Shown here piece by piece: positions 2,467 to 38,439 of a DNA stretch of 40,804 bases. Under the pieces are notes generated by a model. That model had not been told where the DNA came from. It saw only the letters and a program-made list of their open reading frames with translations, and did not search any database. Source of the DNA: Pyrinomonadaceae bacterium (GTDB lineage: Bacteria > Acidobacteriota > Blastocatellia > Pyrinomonadales > Pyrinomonadaceae). Numbering within the stretch: the stretch's first letter is position 1; each line of letters starts with the position of its first letter. The stretch lies in contig JBGTRS010000001.1 in the NCBI GenBank assembly GCA_041940665.1, positions 1 to 40,804 of the forward strand, in the 5' to 3' direction. The position numbers and the translations under genes are program-made.

Positions 2467-4179
2467 ATGTATATTTTAGGTTTAACAACATTGGGCGATT
2501 CCGCCGCGAGTTTGATAAAAGACGGCGTGCCGGTGGCAATGGCGGAAGAAGAGCGTTTTTCGCGTAAAAAACATCACAGCGGTTTTCCGTACAAGGCGAT
2601 CGAGTATTGTCTGGATCAGGCGGGCATCACCTTAAAGGATGTCGAGCATGTCGGACATTACTGGAAACCCTGGATTCTGCGGCATAAAGCGATGCAGGCT
2701 GTAAAGGCGGCGTTCGTTTCGCGGGCTATGTTTAAGGCGAGAGCCGACCGCGGCGTGGCTCAAGTTTCGGACAGCTATCTCGGAATGTTCCGCCACGCCA
2801 GGCGTCTGCGTGAACATTTCGGCGAAAGCGGTTTTAAGTTTCACTACATCGAACATCATCAGAGCCACGCGGCTTCGGCCTTTTTCGTCTCGCCGTTTGA
2901 ATCCGCCGCAATTTTGACCTGGGACGGAACGGGCGAGGATACGACGACGCTTTTCTGTCACGGCCAAGGCAATCAGATCAAGGTCTTGAAAAGGATCAAA
3001 CTGCCGCACTCGCTCGGCCAGTTTTATTCCGCCGTGACTAATTATATCGGGTTCGATATGTTCACGGGCGATGAATGGAAGGTGATGGGACTCGCCGCTT
3101 ACGGCAAACCGAAATTCTATGACTTTTTCAAAGACAAGGTTTTGACCACCGACGGAAACGGCGGTTTTAAGTTCGATATAAAGGTTTTAGACCATCACCT
3201 CGCCAAACATTATCAATTTCCCGAACAGATCGTGAAAGAGATCGGCCCGGGCCGCCAGAAGGGCGAAGAACTGACCGAACACCACTGGGACATCGCCTGC
3301 TCGGCTCAGAAAGTCCTGGAAGATACGGCGATCCATCTCGTCAAACAGATCAGGGAAATGACGGGCGAAGAAAATCTCTGTATGGCGGGCGGCGTCGCGT
3401 TCAATTCGGTTATGAACGGCCGCATCTTTCACGAAACGCCGTTTAAGAATTTCTTTGTTCAGCCCGCCGCGGGCGATGCCGGCTGCAGTTTGGGAGCGGC
3501 CCTGATGGTCTGGCATCAGAAACTCGGCAATCCGCGAAAATTTGTGATGAATCACGCTTACTACGGCCCGCAATTTACCAATGAAGAATGCCGGAAGGTT
3601 CTGGACGAAGCGGGGTTGAAGTATGAAACTCTGCCGGATGAGGAGTTACTGCCGAAACTGGCGGAAATGATCTCGGAAGGGGCGATCGTCGGTTGGTTTC
3701 AGGGACGGATGGAATGGGGGCCGAGAGCTCTGGGAGCGAGAAGCTTCGTCGCCGATCCGCGCCGCAAGGATATGCGTGAGATTCTCAATCACAAGGTCAA
3801 ACTGCGGGAATGGTTCCGGCCGCTCGCACCTTCGATGCTCGAAGAATACGGCACGGAGATTTTCGGCAAAGAACATCACGACCCCTTTATGATCACGGTC
3901 ATCGAAGTGTCGGAAGATTGGAAAGAGAAAATTCCGGCGGTCGTTCATGTGGACGGCACCGCCCGTCCGCAGATGGTCAACAGGGAGGTCAATCCGCGGT
4001 ACTGGAATCTGATCAATGAATTCAAGAAACTGACCGGCATTCCCCTGCTTCTGAATACATCCTTCAACATCCAGGAACCGATTGTCTGTACACCGGAAAA
4101 TGCGGTCAACACTTTCAGAAATGCGAACTTCGACGCATTGGTTCTGGAAAACAATCTGGTCTTGCGGAGCGAAAATTAA
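2467..4179 (+). CDS. Carbamoyltransferase, NodU/CmcH family
   Basis: 570-aa ORF. The N-terminus MYILGLTTLGDSAASLIKDGVPVAMAEEERFSRKKHHSGFPYKAIEYCL and the C-terminal VHVDGTARPQ...LLLNTSFN are characteristic of NodU/CmcH O-carbamoyltransferases. Confidence 0.9.
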   Translation: MYILGLTTLGDSAASLIKDGVPVAMAEEERFSRKKHHSGFPYKAIEYCLDQAGITLKDVEHVGHYWKPWILRHKAMQAVKAAFVSRAMFKARADRGVAQVSDSYLGMFRHARRLREHFGESGFKFHYIEHHQSHAASAFFVSPFESAAILTWDGTGEDTTTLFCHGQGNQIKVLKRIKLPHSLGQFYSAVTNYIGFDMFTGDEWKVMGLAAYGKPKFYDFFKDKVLTTDGNGGFKFDIKVLDHHLAKHYQFPEQIVKEIGPGRQKGEELTEHHWDIACSAQKVLEDTAIHLVKQIREMTGEENLCMAGGVAFNSVMNGRIFHETPFKNFFVQPAAGDAGCSLGAALMVWHQKLGNPRKFVMNHAYYGPQFTNEECRKVLDEAGLKYETLPDEELLPKLAEMISEGAIVGWFQGRMEWGPRALGARSFVADPRRKDMREILNHKVKLREWFRPLAPSMLEEYGTEIFGKEHHDPFMITVIEVSEDWKEKIPAVVHVDGTARPQMVNREVNPRYWNLINEFKKLTGIPLLLNTSFNIQEPIVCTPENAVNTFRNANFDALVLENNLVLRSEN

Positions 4180-12353: not shown

Positions 12354-12416
12354 AAAAAAGTGAAGGAGCGAAAAAGTCTGTGTATTACCCGGCTTTTTCG
12401 CTCCTTCACTTTTTTA
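12354..12416. terminator. Bidirectional rho-independent terminator between convergent genes
   Basis: Perfect 17-bp stem GTGAAGGAGCGAAAAAG (12361-12377) with CTTTTTCGCTCCTTCAC (12394-12410). An A-run (12354-12360) precedes it and a T-run (12411-12416) follows. Confidence 0.8.
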
Positions 12417-18700: not shown

Positions 18701-18776
18701 GCCCGCTAATTTACGCGAATAAACGCGAATTATTTATGTGAATTTATTAGCGTAAATTAGCGTAGATTAGCGGGCC
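18701..18776. repeat. 76-bp palindromic element with 10-bp periodic arm units, immediately upstream of the DUF2256 start
   Basis: The outer inverted repeat is GCCCGCTAATTTACGC (18701-18716) with GCGTAGATTAGCGGGC (18760-18775), matching 15/16. The arms consist of about 10-nt units (TTAGCGTAAA / TTAGCGTAGA / TTAGCGGGCC, and TTACGCGAAT / AAACGCGAAT). ATTTTTT is present on both flanks (18694-18700 and 18777-18783). Confidence 0.65.
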
Positions 18777-30688: not shown

Positions 30689-30727
30689 ATTTTATTGATA
30701 TTTTGAATCTATAGTTCCAAGCAAAAA

Positions 30728-30765
30728 GAAAAGAGGCCGGCTTAAATTCAAGCCGGCCTCTTTTC
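30728..30765. terminator. Bidirectional rho-independent terminator between convergent genes
   Basis: A perfect 16-bp stem, GAAAAGAGGCCGGCTT (30728-30743) with AAGCCGGCCTCTTTTC (30750-30765), has a 6-nt loop. The 5' flank is A-rich and the 3' flank is T-rich. Confidence 0.85.
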
Positions 30766-30786
30766 TTTTCAAACAGACGCTTCAAT

Positions 30787-32271: not shown

Positions 32272-32844
32272 GTGGAAAACGATAAAACAAAAGAAGTTAC
32301 GGTCTTTTTAAAAGCCTGGAGCGGCGGCGACCGTCAAGCGGCTGATAGTCTTTTATCGCTTGTCTATAAGGAAATGCGGAAACTTGCCGCGAGTTATCTG
32401 CAACAGCAACGCTCCGACCATACTTTGCAGCCGACCGCCCTCGTTCACGAAGCCTATCTCAAACTTATTAACTCTTCGCAAGTCAACTGGCAGGATCGGG
32501 CACATTTTTTCGCCGTTGCCGCCCAAACGATGCGGAATATTTTGGTTGACCACGCCCGGGCGGTTGCGGCGGACAAACGCGGCGGCGGATTGCAAAAGAT
32601 CGAACTCGATGAAGCCGTCGGATTTTCCGACAAACAGGATGTTGATCTGATTGATCTGGACGAAGCCCTCCAACAACTCGCCGAACAGGATGAGTTGCAA
32701 AGCCGGATCATCGAACTCCGGTTCTTCGGCGGACTGACGATCGAGGAAACGGCGGAGGTTTTGGGAGTTTCTCCGGCAACCGTTAAACGCGAATGGGCGA
32801 TGGCGAGAGCTTGGCTTTTTAGAAGGATGAAGGAGAAAGGATGA
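32272..32844 (+). CDS. ECF RNA polymerase sigma factor, TIGR02999 (ECF43-like, kinase-associated) type
   Basis: 190-aa ORF with a GTG start. The N-terminal signature VTVFLKAWSGGDRQAADSLLSLVYKEMRKLAASYLQQQRSDHTLQPTALVHEAYLKL and the region-4 HTH (LTIEETAEVLGVSPATVKREW) fit this family. A Ser/Thr kinase gene follows 60 nt downstream. Confidence 0.9.
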   Translation: MENDKTKEVTVFLKAWSGGDRQAADSLLSLVYKEMRKLAASYLQQQRSDHTLQPTALVHEAYLKLINSSQVNWQDRAHFFAVAAQTMRNILVDHARAVAADKRGGGLQKIELDEAVGFSDKQDVDLIDLDEALQQLAEQDELQSRIIELRFFGGLTIEETAEVLGVSPATVKREWAMARAWLFRRMKEKG

Positions 32845-32903: not shown

Positions 32904-35384
32904 ATGCTTGAAAAAGAGAAATGGCAAAAAGCAAAAGAGATTTTCCAAACGGCTTTGAATTTACCTTCTGCCGAACGCCCGGCGTTTATCGAAAAAGCAT
33001 CGGACGGTGATGAGCAGATAAAAATGGAAGTCGAAACGCTTCTCGAAGCCCACGAAGAAGCCGGAGACTTTATCAACAAATCCGCTTTTTCGGTCGCGGA
33101 TTTTGTCACCGATACGCCGAAAACATCTTTGATCGGACAAAAGATCGGTGTCTATGAGATCGAACGCCAGATCGGCCGCGGCGGGATGGGGGCGGTTTAT
33201 CTGGCCAGACGAGCCGACCAGACTTTCGATAAACGGGTCGCTGTAAAGCTGATCAAACGCGGTTTCGACACGGATGAAATTATCCGCCGTTTTCGAAATG
33301 AACGACAGATCCTTGCCGGTCTCGATCATCCAAACATTACACGCCTGCTTGACGGCGGAGCGACAGATGACGGTCTGCCCTTTCTCGTTATGGATTTTGT
33401 CGAAGGCGAACCGCTGACAAAATTCAGCCGGCAACAAGAACTTTCAATAAAGGAGCGTTTAGAACTTTTTCTTAAAATCTGCTCAGCGGTTCAATATGCT
33501 CATCAGAATCTGATCATTCACCGAGACTTAAAACCCTCGAATGTTTTGGTCACAAACGACGGCACACCGAAACTGCTCGATTTCGGTATCGCCAAACTCG
33601 TTGCCGATGAGTCACAGGCGGAAACAATGAACACTTTGACGCGGGTGATGACACCGGAATATGCTTCGCCCGAACAAATTCAAGGAAAACCGATCACGAC
33701 CTCATCGGATGTTTATGCGTTAGGCGTTATTCTTTACGAACTGCTGACGGGAGTGAGACCTTATAAAATTAAAAGCAGAAGTGCGGAAGAAATCTCGAAG
33801 ATCATTACCGACAGCGAACCGGTCAAGCCGAGCGATGTAATTCAAGACGGGGAGAGGGGGAGACGGGGAGAACGGGAGAGTAAGAAAAACTCCCCATCTC
33901 CCCCTCTCCCGTTCTCCCCGTCTCAACTAAGGGGTGATTTGGACAACATCGTTCTGATGGCGATGCGGAAAGAACCCGAACGCAGATATTCATCGGTCGA
34001 GCAATTTGCCGAAGACATCAAGCGTTATCTAAATGGCTTGCCGGTCATTGCCCGTCAAGACAGTTTTGCTTATCGCACATCAAAATTCATAAACAGAAAC
34101 AAGGTCGGCGTGGCGGCGGTCGGCGGAGTCGCCGTTTCGCTCATTGCCGGAATTTTGACGACGACCAGGCAAGCCCGCATCGCCCGCCGACAACGCGATA
34201 AAGCCGAAAAGATCAACAAATTCCTGCAAAAAATGCTCAGTTCCGCCGATCCGCGTGCTGTCGGCAAAGACGCAAAAGTCGTCGAAGTCTTAAAGATCGC
34301 CGCCGATTCGGTCGAAAATGATTTTGCCGGATCGCCCGAAATTGTCGCCGATCTACGCACGACCATCGGTCTGACGTTTTTGAGTATCGGACAGATCGAG
34401 TCTGCCGAACCGCATCTCGCCGAAACCCTGGAAATCCGCCGAAAGCTTTTCGGTTTGGAAAATCCCGAAACGGCCGTAAGTTTAAATAACTTCGGAAAAT
34501 TACTGCAGGCCAAGGGCGATCTGAAACGGGCGGAAAAACTTTTCCGGCAAGCTCTAAAGATTCTGCAAAAGGTTCATCGAAATGATTCGATGGAATCTGC
34601 CGAAGTGCTTGGCAATCTCGGTTATCTTTTGATGCTCGAAGGAAATTACGAGGAAGCGAAAAATCTGCATCACGAGAAACTGAAAATCATTCGCCGGATT
34701 TCGGGCGAAAAAGATTCGGAATTTGCCCAGACATTGAGCAGTCTGGCAAACGTCTATTCTGTTACGGGCGATAAAAAAACCGCCGAAGCGATGCACCGCC
34801 AGGCTCTTCGTTTAACGCAGAAACTCTATGACGTTGAACATCCGGATACCGCCACGGCGATGCTTCATCTGGCGATTACGATCATTCCTACAAAACCCGC
34901 CGAAGCCGAATCTTTGTTTCGTCAGACCTTGGCTTCCCGCCGCAAATTCTTCGGCGAGGGACATACCGAAACCGCCTGGGCGATCTATTATCTCGGCGAT
35001 GTTTTCCTGCGAAATGGAAATTATGAACGAGCCGCCGAATGTGCGACGGAGATTCTCAATTGGCGTGGAAATTCGATTCCCGAAACGCATTCGGTCATCA
35101 ACAGTACACTTTTGATGCTGGGAAGATGTTATCTGGGTATAAATCAAACGACCGAAGCCGAACCGCTTTTGCGTGAATGTGTGAAATTAAGAAAAGAAAC
35201 CCTGCCGGCCGATCATTGGCTGATCGCCACCGCCGAAGGCTATTTGGGAGAATGTCTTCGGCAGTCGGGCAAAGTTGAAGAAGCCGAAAATTTATCGCAG
35301 AAAAGTTATAAAACTTTGTTGGATAAATTAGGCAAAGATCACGAACATACCGTACTCGCCCGGAAAAGACTCGACAAATTTTAA
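32904..35384 (+). CDS. Ser/Thr protein kinase with a TM segment and C-terminal TPR repeats
   Basis: 826-aa ORF. Hanks motifs are GRGGMGAVYLA, VAVKLIK, HRDLKPSNVL, DFGIAKL and TPEYASPEQ. A TM helix (VGVAAVGGVAVSLIAGILTT) is followed by TPR_12-like repeats. It contains the palindromic insert at 33846-33922. Confidence 0.9.
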   Translation: MLEKEKWQKAKEIFQTALNLPSAERPAFIEKASDGDEQIKMEVETLLEAHEEAGDFINKSAFSVADFVTDTPKTSLIGQKIGVYEIERQIGRGGMGAVYLARRADQTFDKRVAVKLIKRGFDTDEIIRRFRNERQILAGLDHPNITRLLDGGATDDGLPFLVMDFVEGEPLTKFSRQQELSIKERLELFLKICSAVQYAHQNLIIHRDLKPSNVLVTNDGTPKLLDFGIAKLVADESQAETMNTLTRVMTPEYASPEQIQGKPITTSSDVYALGVILYELLTGVRPYKIKSRSAEEISKIITDSEPVKPSDVIQDGERGRRGERESKKNSPSPPLPFSPSQLRGDLDNIVLMAMRKEPERRYSSVEQFAEDIKRYLNGLPVIARQDSFAYRTSKFINRNKVGVAAVGGVAVSLIAGILTTTRQARIARRQRDKAEKINKFLQKMLSSADPRAVGKDAKVVEVLKIAADSVENDFAGSPEIVADLRTTIGLTFLSIGQIESAEPHLAETLEIRRKLFGLENPETAVSLNNFGKLLQAKGDLKRAEKLFRQALKILQKVHRNDSMESAEVLGNLGYLLMLEGNYEEAKNLHHEKLKIIRRISGEKDSEFAQTLSSLANVYSVTGDKKTAEAMHRQALRLTQKLYDVEHPDTATAMLHLAITIIPTKPAEAESLFRQTLASRRKFFGEGHTETAWAIYYLGDVFLRNGNYERAAECATEILNWRGNSIPETHSVINSTLLMLGRCYLGINQTTEAEPLLRECVKLRKETLPADHWLIATAEGYLGECLRQSGKVEEAENLSQKSYKTLLDKLGKDHEHTVLARKRLDKF
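33846..33922. repeat. 77-bp G-tract/C-tract palindromic element inserted in-frame in the kinase CDS, flanked by TCAA direct repeats
   Basis: The left arm is GACGGGGAGAGGGGGAGACGGGGAGAACGGGAGAG, the loop is TAAGAAAAAC, and the right arm is TCCCCATCTCCCCCTCTCCCGTTCTCCCCGTC. 33862-33880 is a perfect 19-nt reverse complement of 33904-33922. TCAA occurs at 33842-33845 and 33923-33926. The element plus one TCAA is 81 nt (27 codons). Confidence 0.8.
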
Positions 35385-36015: not shown

Positions 36016-38439
36016 TTATTTATCCAACCCGACCTTTCTTATCAAATCCCGAAAACGCGGATCATCCCGCAGGTCGTCAACGAGCGGTTCGACGTTCAAA
36101 AAAGGCATAAATCCGGAACGTTCCTTGTAAGCCTTTTCAAACCACTCGAAAGTTTTGTCGAAATCCTTTAAGCCGAGATAGATGACGGCGAAATTGTATG
36201 ACGGAACGAATTGTTTTTCGGCTATCTTTTCCAAGTTTTCCAAAACATCCGAAGCCTTTTCCGTTTCTTCCGCGATGCCGTAGGCAAAACCCAAGTATGC
36301 TTCAAAGGCAAGACCGCCGCTCGAGAATTCGACGGCCTTTTGCAGAGCGTTGATCGCTTTTTCCGTTTCGCCTTTTTGCAGAAATGCGAGTCCTAAATTC
36401 CGATAGGCAAAGGTTGAATTTTTTTCCATTTCGAGAGCCTTCCGGCATTCGGCGATGGCTTTGTCGAATTCGCGGGCAAAGTAAAATCCGTAACCGAGAG
36501 AGATGTGCGAAAACGGCGAAAGCGGATCTAGTTGCTGGACTTTTTGACATTGCTCGATGGCTTCCCGGTGCCGTCCCATTGCTTTCAAGTAAAACCCGTA
36601 ACCGTCGTAGGCGTTCGGATAATTGGGCGAAAGTTCGACGGCACGTTTGAATTGTTTTTCGGCTTCCGCAAAATCCCAATCGTAGAGCAGACTGCAAAAA
36701 CCGAGCGAACAATGAGCTTCGCCGAGCGTTTCGTCTATTTCGAGAGCCTTCAAAGCGGCGGCCTTGGCTTTCGGATAAGCTTCCGAAGGCAGCCAACCGC
36801 CGGTCGAAGAAGCTAAGAAACCATACGCTTCGGCAATTCCCGAATAGGCGAGAGCGTAGTTCGGGTCGAGATCAATCGCCTTTTGAAAAAATTCGATGCC
36901 TTTTTTGATCCATTCTTCCGTGCGTTTGGCCGTCACGAAATATCTGCCTTTCAGGTAAAAATGATAGGCCTCGATATTTTCCGTGTAACGTTTGACCAAT
37001 TGCCCGGTGTGTTCGCCCGTGATCTTCAGCCGCAGAGTCTCGCTGATGTCGCCGGCAATTTCTTCCTGAAGCGTGAAAATATCGGTCATTTTATGGCGGT
37101 AGCGTTCGCCCCAGATCTGCGATTCGTTTTTGATGTTGATCAATTCAGTCGTAACGACCAGGGATTCGCCGATCTGCAGAATTCTCCCCGCCAGAACCGC
37201 ACAAACGTCCAACTCTTCGCCGATCTTTTGCGGATCTTCGGTTTTGTCTTTGTATCGAAAAACCGTGCTTCGCGGAATGACCCGCACATCTGAAACACTC
37301 GAAAGCGTGTTGATGATCGATTCGGTAATGCCGTCGCTTAAATATTCCGTGTTCGCATCTTTACTGCCGTTGACCAGCGGCAGAATCGCTAAGGATTCGA
37401 TCCGGTCTGCAGAAGAAATGATCCGGGTTGACTGAAAGGAATCCGGCGAAAAAATTGCCGTTTCTCTTTCCGAATGATCGGTCTCGACCTCGGCAATATC
37501 GGGCAGTTCGCCCGAATCCTTCACCCGTTTTAATTCCGATTCAAACTCGATTCGTTGTTTGAGTTTTCTCAGATCCGTCAGAAATTCTCCGATCGTCTGA
37601 TAGCGTTCTTCGATCTTTTTCGAAAGTGCTTTGGAAACGCAAAGATCGAGTTCGGAAGAAGCGTTTTTGAAATATTCTTTTAGGGGTTTCGGGTTTGTCT
37701 GCAAGATCGCGGCGATGACATCGCTGACCGTTTCGCCGGCAAAAGGAGTCTGTCCGGAGATCATTTCATAGACGACGATGCCGAGACTGAAAATATCGCT
37801 TCGCGTATCAACCTGTAAGCCTCTCGCCTGCTCCGGCGACATATAATTTGCCGTTCCGAGAATCATTCCCGGATTCGTGAGCGACGCGGAAATAATTTCC
37901 CCTTTTCCCTTTTTCCCTTTCTCCCTTTCTTGCAGTTTGGCCAGACCGAAATCCAGAACCTTGACGTAGCCGTCGTGTCTGACCATTATATTTTCGGGTT
38001 TGATGTCGCGGTGAATGATTCCCGCCTCGTGTGCCGCCATGAGAGCATTGGCAATCTGGACGGCGATGTCGAGCGATTTTGTTAAATTTAGAGATCTATT
38101 TTTAATGTGTGTGCGAAGCGTTTCGCCGGCGACATATTCGGTGGCGATGAAATTGATGTCTTCCGTTTTGCCGATGTCGAAAATAGTTAAGATGTTCGGA
38201 TGATTGAGAGCCGAAGCTGAATACGCTTCACGCATAAATCTTTCGACCGCCGAATTATTTTTGACAAGTTTCGCGGGCAAAACCTTGATCGCCACATCAC
38301 GTTTGAGCCGCGTATCGCGGGCGTGATAGACCTCGCCCATACCGCCGGAACCAATGGCGGATAAAACCTCGTAATTCCCGAATTTTTCACCGATTTTCAA
38401 CACGATTTTTTTAGTGAAAGCATTATAACATTGTTTCAT
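36016..38439 (-). CDS. Ser/Thr protein kinase with a TolB_N-like middle domain and C-terminal TPR repeats
   Basis: 807-aa ORF. Motifs are GSGGMGEVYHA, VAIKVL, HRDIKPENIM, DFGLAKL and GTANYMSPEQ. The middle region is SLAILPLVNGSKDANTEYLSDGITESIINTLS. Multiple TPRs follow (AIDLDPNYALAY..., AVELSPNYPNAY...). Confidence 0.9.
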   Translation of the reverse strand: MKQCYNAFTKKIVLKIGEKFGNYEVLSAIGSGGMGEVYHARDTRLKRDVAIKVLPAKLVKNNSAVERFMREAYSASALNHPNILTIFDIGKTEDINFIATEYVAGETLRTHIKNRSLNLTKSLDIAVQIANALMAAHEAGIIHRDIKPENIMVRHDGYVKVLDFGLAKLQEREKGKKGKGEIISASLTNPGMILGTANYMSPEQARGLQVDTRSDIFSLGIVVYEMISGQTPFAGETVSDVIAAILQTNPKPLKEYFKNASSELDLCVSKALSKKIEERYQTIGEFLTDLRKLKQRIEFESELKRVKDSGELPDIAEVETDHSERETAIFSPDSFQSTRIISSADRIESLAILPLVNGSKDANTEYLSDGITESIINTLSSVSDVRVIPRSTVFRYKDKTEDPQKIGEELDVCAVLAGRILQIGESLVVTTELINIKNESQIWGERYRHKMTDIFTLQEEIAGDISETLRLKITGEHTGQLVKRYTENIEAYHFYLKGRYFVTAKRTEEWIKKGIEFFQKAIDLDPNYALAYSGIAEAYGFLASSTGGWLPSEAYPKAKAAALKALEIDETLGEAHCSLGFCSLLYDWDFAEAEKQFKRAVELSPNYPNAYDGYGFYLKAMGRHREAIEQCQKVQQLDPLSPFSHISLGYGFYFAREFDKAIAECRKALEMEKNSTFAYRNLGLAFLQKGETEKAINALQKAVEFSSGGLAFEAYLGFAYGIAEETEKASDVLENLEKIAEKQFVPSYNFAVIYLGLKDFDKTFEWFEKAYKERSGFMPFLNVEPLVDDLRDDPRFRDLIRKVGLDK
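37899..37930. repeat. Four tandem 8-nt units inside the kinase activation-loop coding region
   Basis: The plus strand reads CCCCTTTT CCCTTTTT CCCTTTCT CCCTTTCT. The sense (minus) strand reads AGAAAGGG AGAAAGGG AAAAAGGG AAAAGGGG, encoding QEREKGKKGKGE directly after DFGLAKL. Confidence 0.75.

Follow-up and report, generated by a model that had tools for sequence, protein, structure and literature searches.

An inverted octamer array, probably inherited and self-homogenising, in a predicted disordered loop of a Pyrinomonadaceae Ser/Thr kinase

The stretch analysed here (the window) is 40.8 kb of the Pyrinomonadaceae contig JBGTRS010000001.1. Our subject is a palindrome that lies, codon-aligned, within a Ser/Thr kinase-TPR gene of this window. 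An earlier examination of the letters without database searches (the sequence-only reading) had taken it for a MITE (miniature inverted-repeat transposable element), inserted in frame between duplicated TCAA target sites. Our analysis suggests that it is probably an inherited, self-homogenising inverted array of octamers, tolerated as a disordered loop of the kinase. The host gene, its upstream neighbour and the parts of the palindrome are as follows.

32272..32844, + strand: extracytoplasmic function (ECF) sigma factor gene, directly 5' of the kinase gene.
32904..35384, + strand: host gene, 826 aa, a Hanks-type Ser/Thr kinase followed by a transmembrane segment and TPR (tetratricopeptide) repeats.
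33845..33880, + strand: 5' arm, ~4.4 octamers, AGACGGGG / AGAGGGGG / AGACGGGG / AGAACGGG / AGAG.
33881..33889, + strand: loop or spacer TAAGAAAAA between the arms, which are 11 nt apart in the 34-nt register.
33890..33924, + strand: 3' arm, ~4.4 octamers, CTCCCCAT / CTCCCCCT / CTCCCGTT / CTCCCCGT / CTC.
33846..33926, + strand: the 27 palindrome-encoded codons, residues 315-341, peptide DGERGRRGERESKKNSPSPPLPFSPSQ, a predicted low-confidence surface loop from helix alphaG to helix alphaH.

The palindrome is imperfect and spans 79-80 nt (33845-33924). A repeat search placed its arms at 33845-33878 and 33890-33923; each is 34 nt long, and they are 85% complementary. An inner pair of 21 nt, 33860-33880 and 33904-33924, is perfectly complementary and contains the perfect 19-nt core recognised earlier, and several shifted registers pair as well. 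Each arm is a tandem array (Tandem Repeats Finder, period 8) with the octamer consensus ACGGGGAG (89%) in the 5' arm and the same consensus in the reverse complement of the 3' arm. The 5' arm consists of purines throughout except for two C and contains four G-tracts, and the final bases of the 3' arm overlap conserved S-Q codons. Copies of TCAA stand at 33842-33845 and 33923-33926, and the 81 nt from 33846 to 33926 are read in frame within the 826-codon open reading frame (ORF). The antisense ORF 33720..33926 is present, and the 5' arm of both strands matches the G3+N1-7 pattern of a candidate G-quadruplex, a prediction from the pattern of letters. The sequence-only reading, which had given no more than a hint of the tandem octamers, was accurate in all that it stated on the sequence itself.

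The palindrome is a nucleotide-level feature. RNA folding, which had been proposed as a check, gave -61.5 kcal/mol for the 97-nt stretch, compared with -34.0 +/- 3.7 for dinucleotide shuffles (z -7.5), none of 200 being as good. Synonymous recoding of the same peptide with the codon usage of the window gave -30.2 +/- 5.7, and none of 1000 recodings reached the observed fold (z -5.5). It follows that the palindrome, which is translated in frame, belongs to the DNA itself and does not arise from the peptide that it encodes. A second copy was not found within the window, where Rfam at gathering thresholds gave no match and a tRNA scan was likewise empty.

In the modelled protein, the palindrome peptide is a disordered surface loop between helices alphaG and alphaH of the kinase domain. 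The alignment to StkP runs to the end of helix F/G, breaks at the insert and picks up again at 'LRGDLDNIVLMAMRKEPERRY'. An AlphaFold2 model built from a 34-sequence alignment (mean predicted local distance difference test, pLDDT, 76.5) predicts helices at residues 294-303, 309-323 and 345-353, with residues 315-341 between them and pLDDT <50 at 322-332. Together, the break in the StkP alignment and the model place the insert in the alphaG-alphaH loop and not inside a helix, contrary to the earlier suggestion that it interrupts one.

The closest database relatives of the kinase are named Pyrinomonadaceae (Acidobacteriota), in agreement with the acidobacterial type of gene proposed from the letters. 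Its pairing with the sigma factor gene is kept in homologs, where the sigma gene matches PF07638. We aligned the 120 best homologs (49-73% identity). The loop, from 'KPS' to 'L[RK]GDLDNI', is long in all of them, 16 to 65 residues, and the junction VIQLRGDLD expected of an empty site occurs in 0 of the 120, the shortest loop having 16 aa. A G-type (hairpin-type) loop, for example LRKGEREKGRKGERE...SPSPLLPFSPSQ, is carried by ~33 homologs at the same site, and its end, 'LPFS.SQL', is well conserved as protein among them. An N-type loop ending in NPKSKIQNPK is found in ~25, a short loop of 19-21 aa (for example VVTQGRKIGNRQPAIGSQ) in ~44, and ~18 fall outside these classes. The residues 'SQ' ahead of L[RK]GDLDNI are kept in every loop type, including the short hairpin-free loops, so the right-hand TCAA is ancestral coding sequence.

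The loop is thus expanded throughout this kinase family, and hairpins lie at the same loop in a clade of homologs. The DNA was examined for eleven homologs, and a hairpin was confirmed in nine that have a G-type loop. Among the matches listed by a scan of genome contigs with the kinase alignment, distant kinases predominated (35-45% identity, generic motifs); of use were L010, L030, L071 and L079, together with background hairpins. The loci are listed below; the site is the same in each.

L081, L082, L084, L085, L086, L088: strong hairpins, z -6 to -9.
L071: strong hairpin, z -8.2.
L079: hairpin, z -4.0.
L083 and L217/P0066: decayed hairpins, z ~-2.5.
L030:6180-6291, an acidobacterial metagenome-assembled genome (MAG): a different perfect palindrome, with 27-nt arms of the heptamer ATTTGGG (GGATTTC/GGATTTG) and a 58-nt spacer.
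L087:1040-1115 (P0002, the closest ortholog, 73% identity, with a matching gene neighbourhood): hairpin absent, z 0; direct octamer arrays, AGTCCAAA x4 then AATCCGCA x4.
L217/P0052, a paralog 7 kb from P0066: short loop, structure absent.

The sequence-only reading had named conservation of the segment as protein without the DNA palindrome as a result that would count against it; homologs keep the segment together with the palindrome. The direct arrays of L087 give the loop the look of a general hotspot for repeats of 8 nt, be they inverted or direct.

The variation of the arms offers a clue to the evolution of the hairpin. Both arms of any one gene have the same octamer consensus, which differs from gene to gene at 1-3 of 8 positions (5' arm / 3' arm reverse complement):

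Window: ACGGGGAG in both.
L081: AAAGGGAG / AAGGGGAG.
L085: AAGAGGAG in both arms.
L088: ACGCGGCG / ACGCGGAG.

A change that is common to all units of both arms does not come from independent point mutations. It needs turnover of units within an arm, by slippage, and transfer from arm to arm. The loop hairpins range from near-perfect through decayed to absent. In a neighbour-joining tree of the kinase domain the loop types form blocks, and in a tree of the TPR part they are more scattered. The genes themselves are mosaic: the kinase C-lobe of the window protein (P0001) is nearest to P0026-like paralogs, its residues 240-300 sharing 83% identity with P0026, which in its TPR part matches P0001 at only ~40%, whereas the N-terminus and TPR part of P0001 are 80-87% identical to P0002. 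That the loop types follow the kinase-domain tree in mosaic genes suggests that the hairpin travels with the kinase domain, through descent and recombination between paralogs.

We therefore favour an inherited, self-homogenising array as the probable explanation. The element would be an inverted pair of G-rich simple-sequence arrays, ~4 GGGGAGAC-type octamers, a short spacer and ~4 reverse-complement octamers. It would not have transposed recently; the structure would have descended along with the kinase domain, and paralogs would have exchanged the domain and its loop together by homologous recombination. Concerted evolution would preserve the palindrome, with replication slippage spreading a variant octamer inside one arm and intrastrand (quasipalindrome) template switching copying it to the other. 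Template switching is known to create and maintain hairpin stems (PMC8794818; also PMC7202029) and to homogenise inverted-repeat arms in coding DNA (PMC8604942). The polypurine/polypyrimidine arms contain no stop codon in any frame, which would leave the array free to grow and shrink in a permissive loop. It would be translated as a disordered segment, rich in Gly, Glu and Arg and then in Ser, Pro and Leu. Effects on expression through ribosome slowing or the formation of a G-quadruplex or cruciform are possible and would be secondary.

Several points weigh against this explanation. We infer slippage and template switching in the kinase loop from the pattern. Strong hairpins persist across homologs that are only 50-57% identical, which selection for structure could explain. 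The closest ortholog, L087, has direct arrays and no hairpin, so the history of the site is not one of simple vertical descent. Clean inserts in carB and in an ABC ATPase gene, described below, show that such hairpins appear de novo in genes, and the kinase copy could likewise have originated by insertion. In addition, copies were counted within the 40.8-kb window.

Other repeats were seen in or near these kinase genes. The kinase loop of the MAGs L003, L005 and L044, all labelled Verrucomicrobiota, and that of the acidobacterial L033 keep only '..RNPKFLRGDLDNI', which looks like a relic of the right arm of the L030-type palindrome. P0038 and P0159, 92% identical and with N-type loops, have left loop halves of equal length, GKWKVESGKSDSV and QKSKVQSPKPEDE; at the protein level it looks as if every repeat unit had changed together, from TCC to TGG. 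A second repeat-built hairpin (heptamer GGATGAA/GGATGAG, arms of up to 34 nt, 97% complementary) spans the stop codon of the ECF sigma gene in several homologs (L086:6335-6405, L081:388-437, L088:1-78), and the window has a weak relic of it at 32822-32844 (GAAGGAT x3.3, fold z ~0). The convergent neighbour kinase gene of the window (36016..38439, - strand) contains a single octamer array, TTTCCCTT x4.1, at 37896-37928 (92% matches). It encodes EREKGKKGKGE just past the DFG motif, in the activation-loop region, with no complementary arm nearby.

Hairpins of the same build are not confined to kinases. A metagenome scan with the pattern GGGAGANNGGGAGA, a 15-45-nt gap and TCTCCCNNTCTCCC found inverted GGGAGANN-type arrays in at least 120 metagenome stretches; among the matches listed, 0 of 80 inspected loci was a relative of the kinase. 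In these listed matches the arms consist of 2-7 tandem GGGAGANN octamers, in which NN is locus-specific, on contigs of 39-73% G+C, and many of the hairpins are intergenic or at gene ends. Most of 113 class members have 2-4 units per arm. At least seven hairpins are read in frame within genuine genes and have Pfam domains to either side of them (ABC_tran, CPSase, ACR_tran, HATPase_c/Response_reg, PSD1, DUF7133 and MMPL); the hosts include carB, an ABC ATPase, AcrB and a hybrid histidine kinase. The carB hairpin, for example, lengthens the protein by 35 aa, placed between the positions of E. coli CarB 630 and 634, and its flanks align cleanly. Gene callers have annotated such hairpins as 'hypothetical proteins' of 37-84 aa in cyanobacteria (Symploca, Crocosphaera) and Acidobacteria. 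A peptide search with the hairpin translation gave 34 weak matches, mostly to tiny hypothetical ORFs, low complexity limiting such a search.

The breadth of this class gives some weight to a mobile origin. A non-autonomous element, whether a MITE, a repetitive extragenic palindromic sequence or its tandem form (REP/REPIN) or an element like the Rickettsia palindromic elements (RPEs), could have inserted repeatedly into the kinase loop as a preferred or permissive target. Same-build hairpins in so many stretches, none of them in a kinase among the 80 inspected, the in-frame inserts that sit cleanly in carB, ABC_tran and ACR_tran genes and the presence of four such hairpins on one phage-like contig would fit this explanation. 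So would the differing palindrome types at the same kinase site (GGATTTC-type in L030) and the termini of the window copy, which starts with GACG and ends with CGTC like CGTC-tagged REPs (PMC3733652). We nevertheless consider it unlikely. The right TCAA, half of the proposed target-site duplication, encodes the S-Q codons of the conserved 'SQL[RK]GDLDNI' and is part of a longer conserved coding sequence, a finding that the sequence-only reading had itself said would speak against insertion. Across 112 class hairpins, flanking direct repeats of at least 4 nt are not in excess (5 observed, 7.3 expected from shuffled pairings), and a 4-nt flank match like that of the window arises by chance in ~6% of cases. 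The element is as a whole one palindrome made of tandem units, and its termini are not conserved, GACG/CGTC ends being absent from L081-L085. The repeat unit varies by locus and, as a rule, also among the hairpins of a single contig (L086, L113, L188), which argues against their being copies of one element; in the window there is just one copy. The lack of an empty site in any of the 120 homologs and the match between loop type and kinase-domain phylogeny point the same way. What stands of the MITE proposal is a genuine in-frame palindrome, without support for the target-site duplication, for the empty site or, within the window, for a family of like-sequence copies.

Slightly more doubtful still is a selected cis-acting signal, in which the hairpin, G-quadruplex or cruciform would halt translation briefly after the kinase domain and before the membrane/TPR part, offer an RNase site or act as an octamer phase-variation switch. 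Strong structure is kept at one site down to ~50% identity with compensating arm changes, a second repeat-built hairpin lies at the sigma-kinase junction in several homologs, and a change in the copy number of an 8-nt unit would shift the reading frame. The four G-tracts per arm, read as a motif, match the G-quadruplex requirement noted for Xanthomonas repeats (PMC4692102). Against such a signal, RNA of the sense strand folds less strongly than antisense RNA in 10 of 11 kinase hairpins, and selection on the mRNA predicts the reverse. The sense fold is weaker because the mismatches are A.C in the sense strand and G.U in the antisense, and the opposite sign of this test led us to down-weight the mRNA-structure idea. 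Many family members, the closest ortholog and a neighbouring paralog among them, also have a decayed hairpin or none, and both a terminator-like tail and an Rfam match are absent. A length-polymorphism search in clusters of >=90% identity found loops identical in length and sequence in clusters of >=99.5% identity, in a sample too small to exclude phase variation. A regulatory role thus found no positive support in our data. Selection on the protein linker alone, a charged and then SP-rich stretch with the DNA palindrome incidental, could account for the conserved 'LPFS.SQL' loop end; it is strongly disfavoured by the recoding result, by the same hairpins in non-coding DNA, where they are called as tiny hypothetical ORFs, and by the co-variation of the arms at the nucleotide level, and we regard it as very improbable. 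Least probable of all is an assembly or amplification artefact. Fold-back in amplified metagenomic DNA can yield palindromes, but same-site in-frame hairpins occur in independent ENA, JGI, NCBI and Logan assemblies, with the reading frame and downstream domains intact. Two further candidates were tried and rejected. Shine-Dalgarno sequestration, prompted by the GGAG core of the units, was dropped since GTGACAA, AGTTGAA and GGATTTC units have no GGAG; for an intrinsic terminator, a terminator scan made no call at the element, whose tail CUCAACUAAGG has no terminator-like U-run.

By analogy of build, the closest described relatives of the kinase element are the inverted G-rich heptamer repeats of Xanthomonas and Nostoc. 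Rehm et al. (2015) described G-rich heptamers, GGGAATC in Xanthomonas and GGGGA[C/T]T in Nostoc/Anabaena, typically in four units (PMC4692102). Xanthomonas has 70-75 convergent array pairs per genome, capable of forming a stem-loop or G-quadruplex; the arrays in both groups are mostly intergenic and under-represented in coding regions, and their length varies between related genomes while the repeat type is kept (PMC4692102). The kinase element resembles them in its tandem 6-9-nt G-rich units, about four per arm, with four G-tracts and convergent close arrays. It differs in having an octamer of the GGGAGANN family, a unit that varies between loci and within contigs, where the heptamers have one sequence throughout a genome. 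Like those pairs, the octamer class is overall largely intergenic or at gene ends, whereas the kinase copy is coding, translated in frame and common to a clade of paralogous kinases. What is new in comparison with the Xanthomonas/Nostoc pairs is above all this translation and the conservation at one site across the paralog clade.

RPEs are families of 100-150 bp with a recognisable consensus, present in multiple copies per genome and confined to Rickettsia. They place palindromic DNA in frame in genes, including housekeeping genes, adding a surface peptide without destroying the protein (PMC1779305, PMC10969869). The likeness to RPEs drawn in the sequence-only reading is apt as to behaviour: the kinase palindrome is an in-frame insert in a protein-coding gene, and hairpins of the same build occur in frame in carB, an ABC ATPase and AcrB. 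Measured against the description of RPEs, it has no consensus beyond the repeated octamer and gives no hint of copy-like spread. Its host belongs to the Acidobacteriota, so RPE membership is not expected.

REP and REPIN elements carry GTAG or CGTC tags (Di Nocera et al., 2013, PMC3733652; Bertels and Rainey, 2011, PMC3116915). The kinase element is likewise a short GC-rich imperfect palindrome, the window copy ending in GACG...CGTC. Unlike REPs, which are extragenic, high-copy, of one sequence per genome and linked to the RAYT transposase, it is intragenic and single-copy in the window, its arms are tandem arrays and the GACG/CGTC ends are found only in some copies. We consider membership of either MITEs or REPs unlikely, as target-site duplication, empty site and conserved tag all fail. 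In template-switch hairpins, multi-nucleotide changes copy one arm onto the other and give perfect or compensated stems without selection, as documented in coding DNA (Monttinen and Loytynoja, 2022; PMC8794818; PMC8604942). This is a mechanism and not an element family, and the tandem-octamer build and G-first bias lie outside that description. The short tandemly repeated repetitive (STRR) heptamers of cyanobacteria and the TAACTGA repeats of Beggiatoaceae are dispersed 7-nt tandem repeats, sometimes in ORFs, sometimes inverted and of unknown origin (MacGregor, 2015, PMC4679880). They differ in that one fixed heptamer is repeated, mostly in direct arrays lying upstream of start codons, and their forward orientation has stop codons.

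Within the wider class, the 5' arm of tandem-unit hairpins is nearly always the G/purine-rich one, whichever strand is read. In viral contigs with the same motif (L209-L216), eight G-first hairpins were found against one C-first match, which is not a true hairpin. A bidirectional-terminator architecture (A-tract ... T-tract) may explain part of this handedness, but not the G-rich coding cases. A tentative and rather doubtful extension of our findings is that these hairpins form an undescribed, widespread class of 'G-first' inverted 7-8-nt arrays in soil bacteria, cyanobacteria and phages. They would renew themselves via a specific templated process, either hairpin- or G-quadruplex-primed slippage or an unknown enzyme, and repeatedly seed disordered loops in conserved proteins (carB, ABC ATPases, RND pumps and kinases). 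If this is true, the strict orientation bias, in which the G-rich arm is 5' without exception whichever strand is read, would be the mark left by the mechanism that generates the hairpins.

Further members and look-alikes were noted. Several inserts can occur in a single gene: the AcrB-like ORF L140:2576-6070 has three GE-rich/SP-rich segments, one of them from a 10-nt-unit hairpin at 3153-3249, and the carB ORF L160:7334-10576 has a second segment, GDGEKG...PPSPAP, upstream of the verified insert. At L148:1472-1618 and L163:1196-1355, the spacer of a larger C-first palindrome (37-43-nt arms, CCTCACCCCCCG.CCCCCTCTCCCATC...) encloses a G-type hairpin; the two contigs are high in GC and unrelated, and the arrangement may be a distinct, conserved element. 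One phage-like 43-kb IMG/VR contig (L211, L212, L213) carries four GGGAGAAA/GGGAGAAG/GGGAGATG hairpins, at least one of which begins right past a stop codon. The 260-nt perfect palindrome at L103:1539-1798 (spacerless 130-nt arms, GAGAGGGA-type repeats, on a contig of 39% G+C) is probably something of another kind, perhaps of eukaryotic origin or an artefact. The window itself contains three further strong hairpins in intergenic positions, at 12354-12415 (perfect 23-nt arms) and 30724-30769 (23-nt arms, 96% complementary), both between convergent genes, and at 18701-18775 (30-35-nt arms of 10-nt repeats), where the genes on either side are both on the minus strand. In appearance they are either bidirectional terminators or members of the same repeat-hairpin class.

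Our analysis has consequences for annotation. Many 'hypothetical proteins' of 40-80 aa that are rich in GERG/SPSP are shadows of such hairpins, and a 4-nt flank repeat is insufficient for calling a MITE. The feature in the kinase is probably an old, self-renewing part of the loop and an example of a widespread repeat class, rather than a freshly inserted mobile element. Hairpin-forming arrays, described so far as intergenic in a few genera, can persist for long inside coding sequence, and such arrays even split highly conserved enzymes, such as carbamoyl-phosphate synthase. The hundreds of paralogous kinases, with hairpins from perfect to decayed, offer a system in which the building and upkeep of stems by template switching and slippage without selection could be studied. 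The same kinases are suited to studies of how disordered loops are born and of the fixed G-first handedness.

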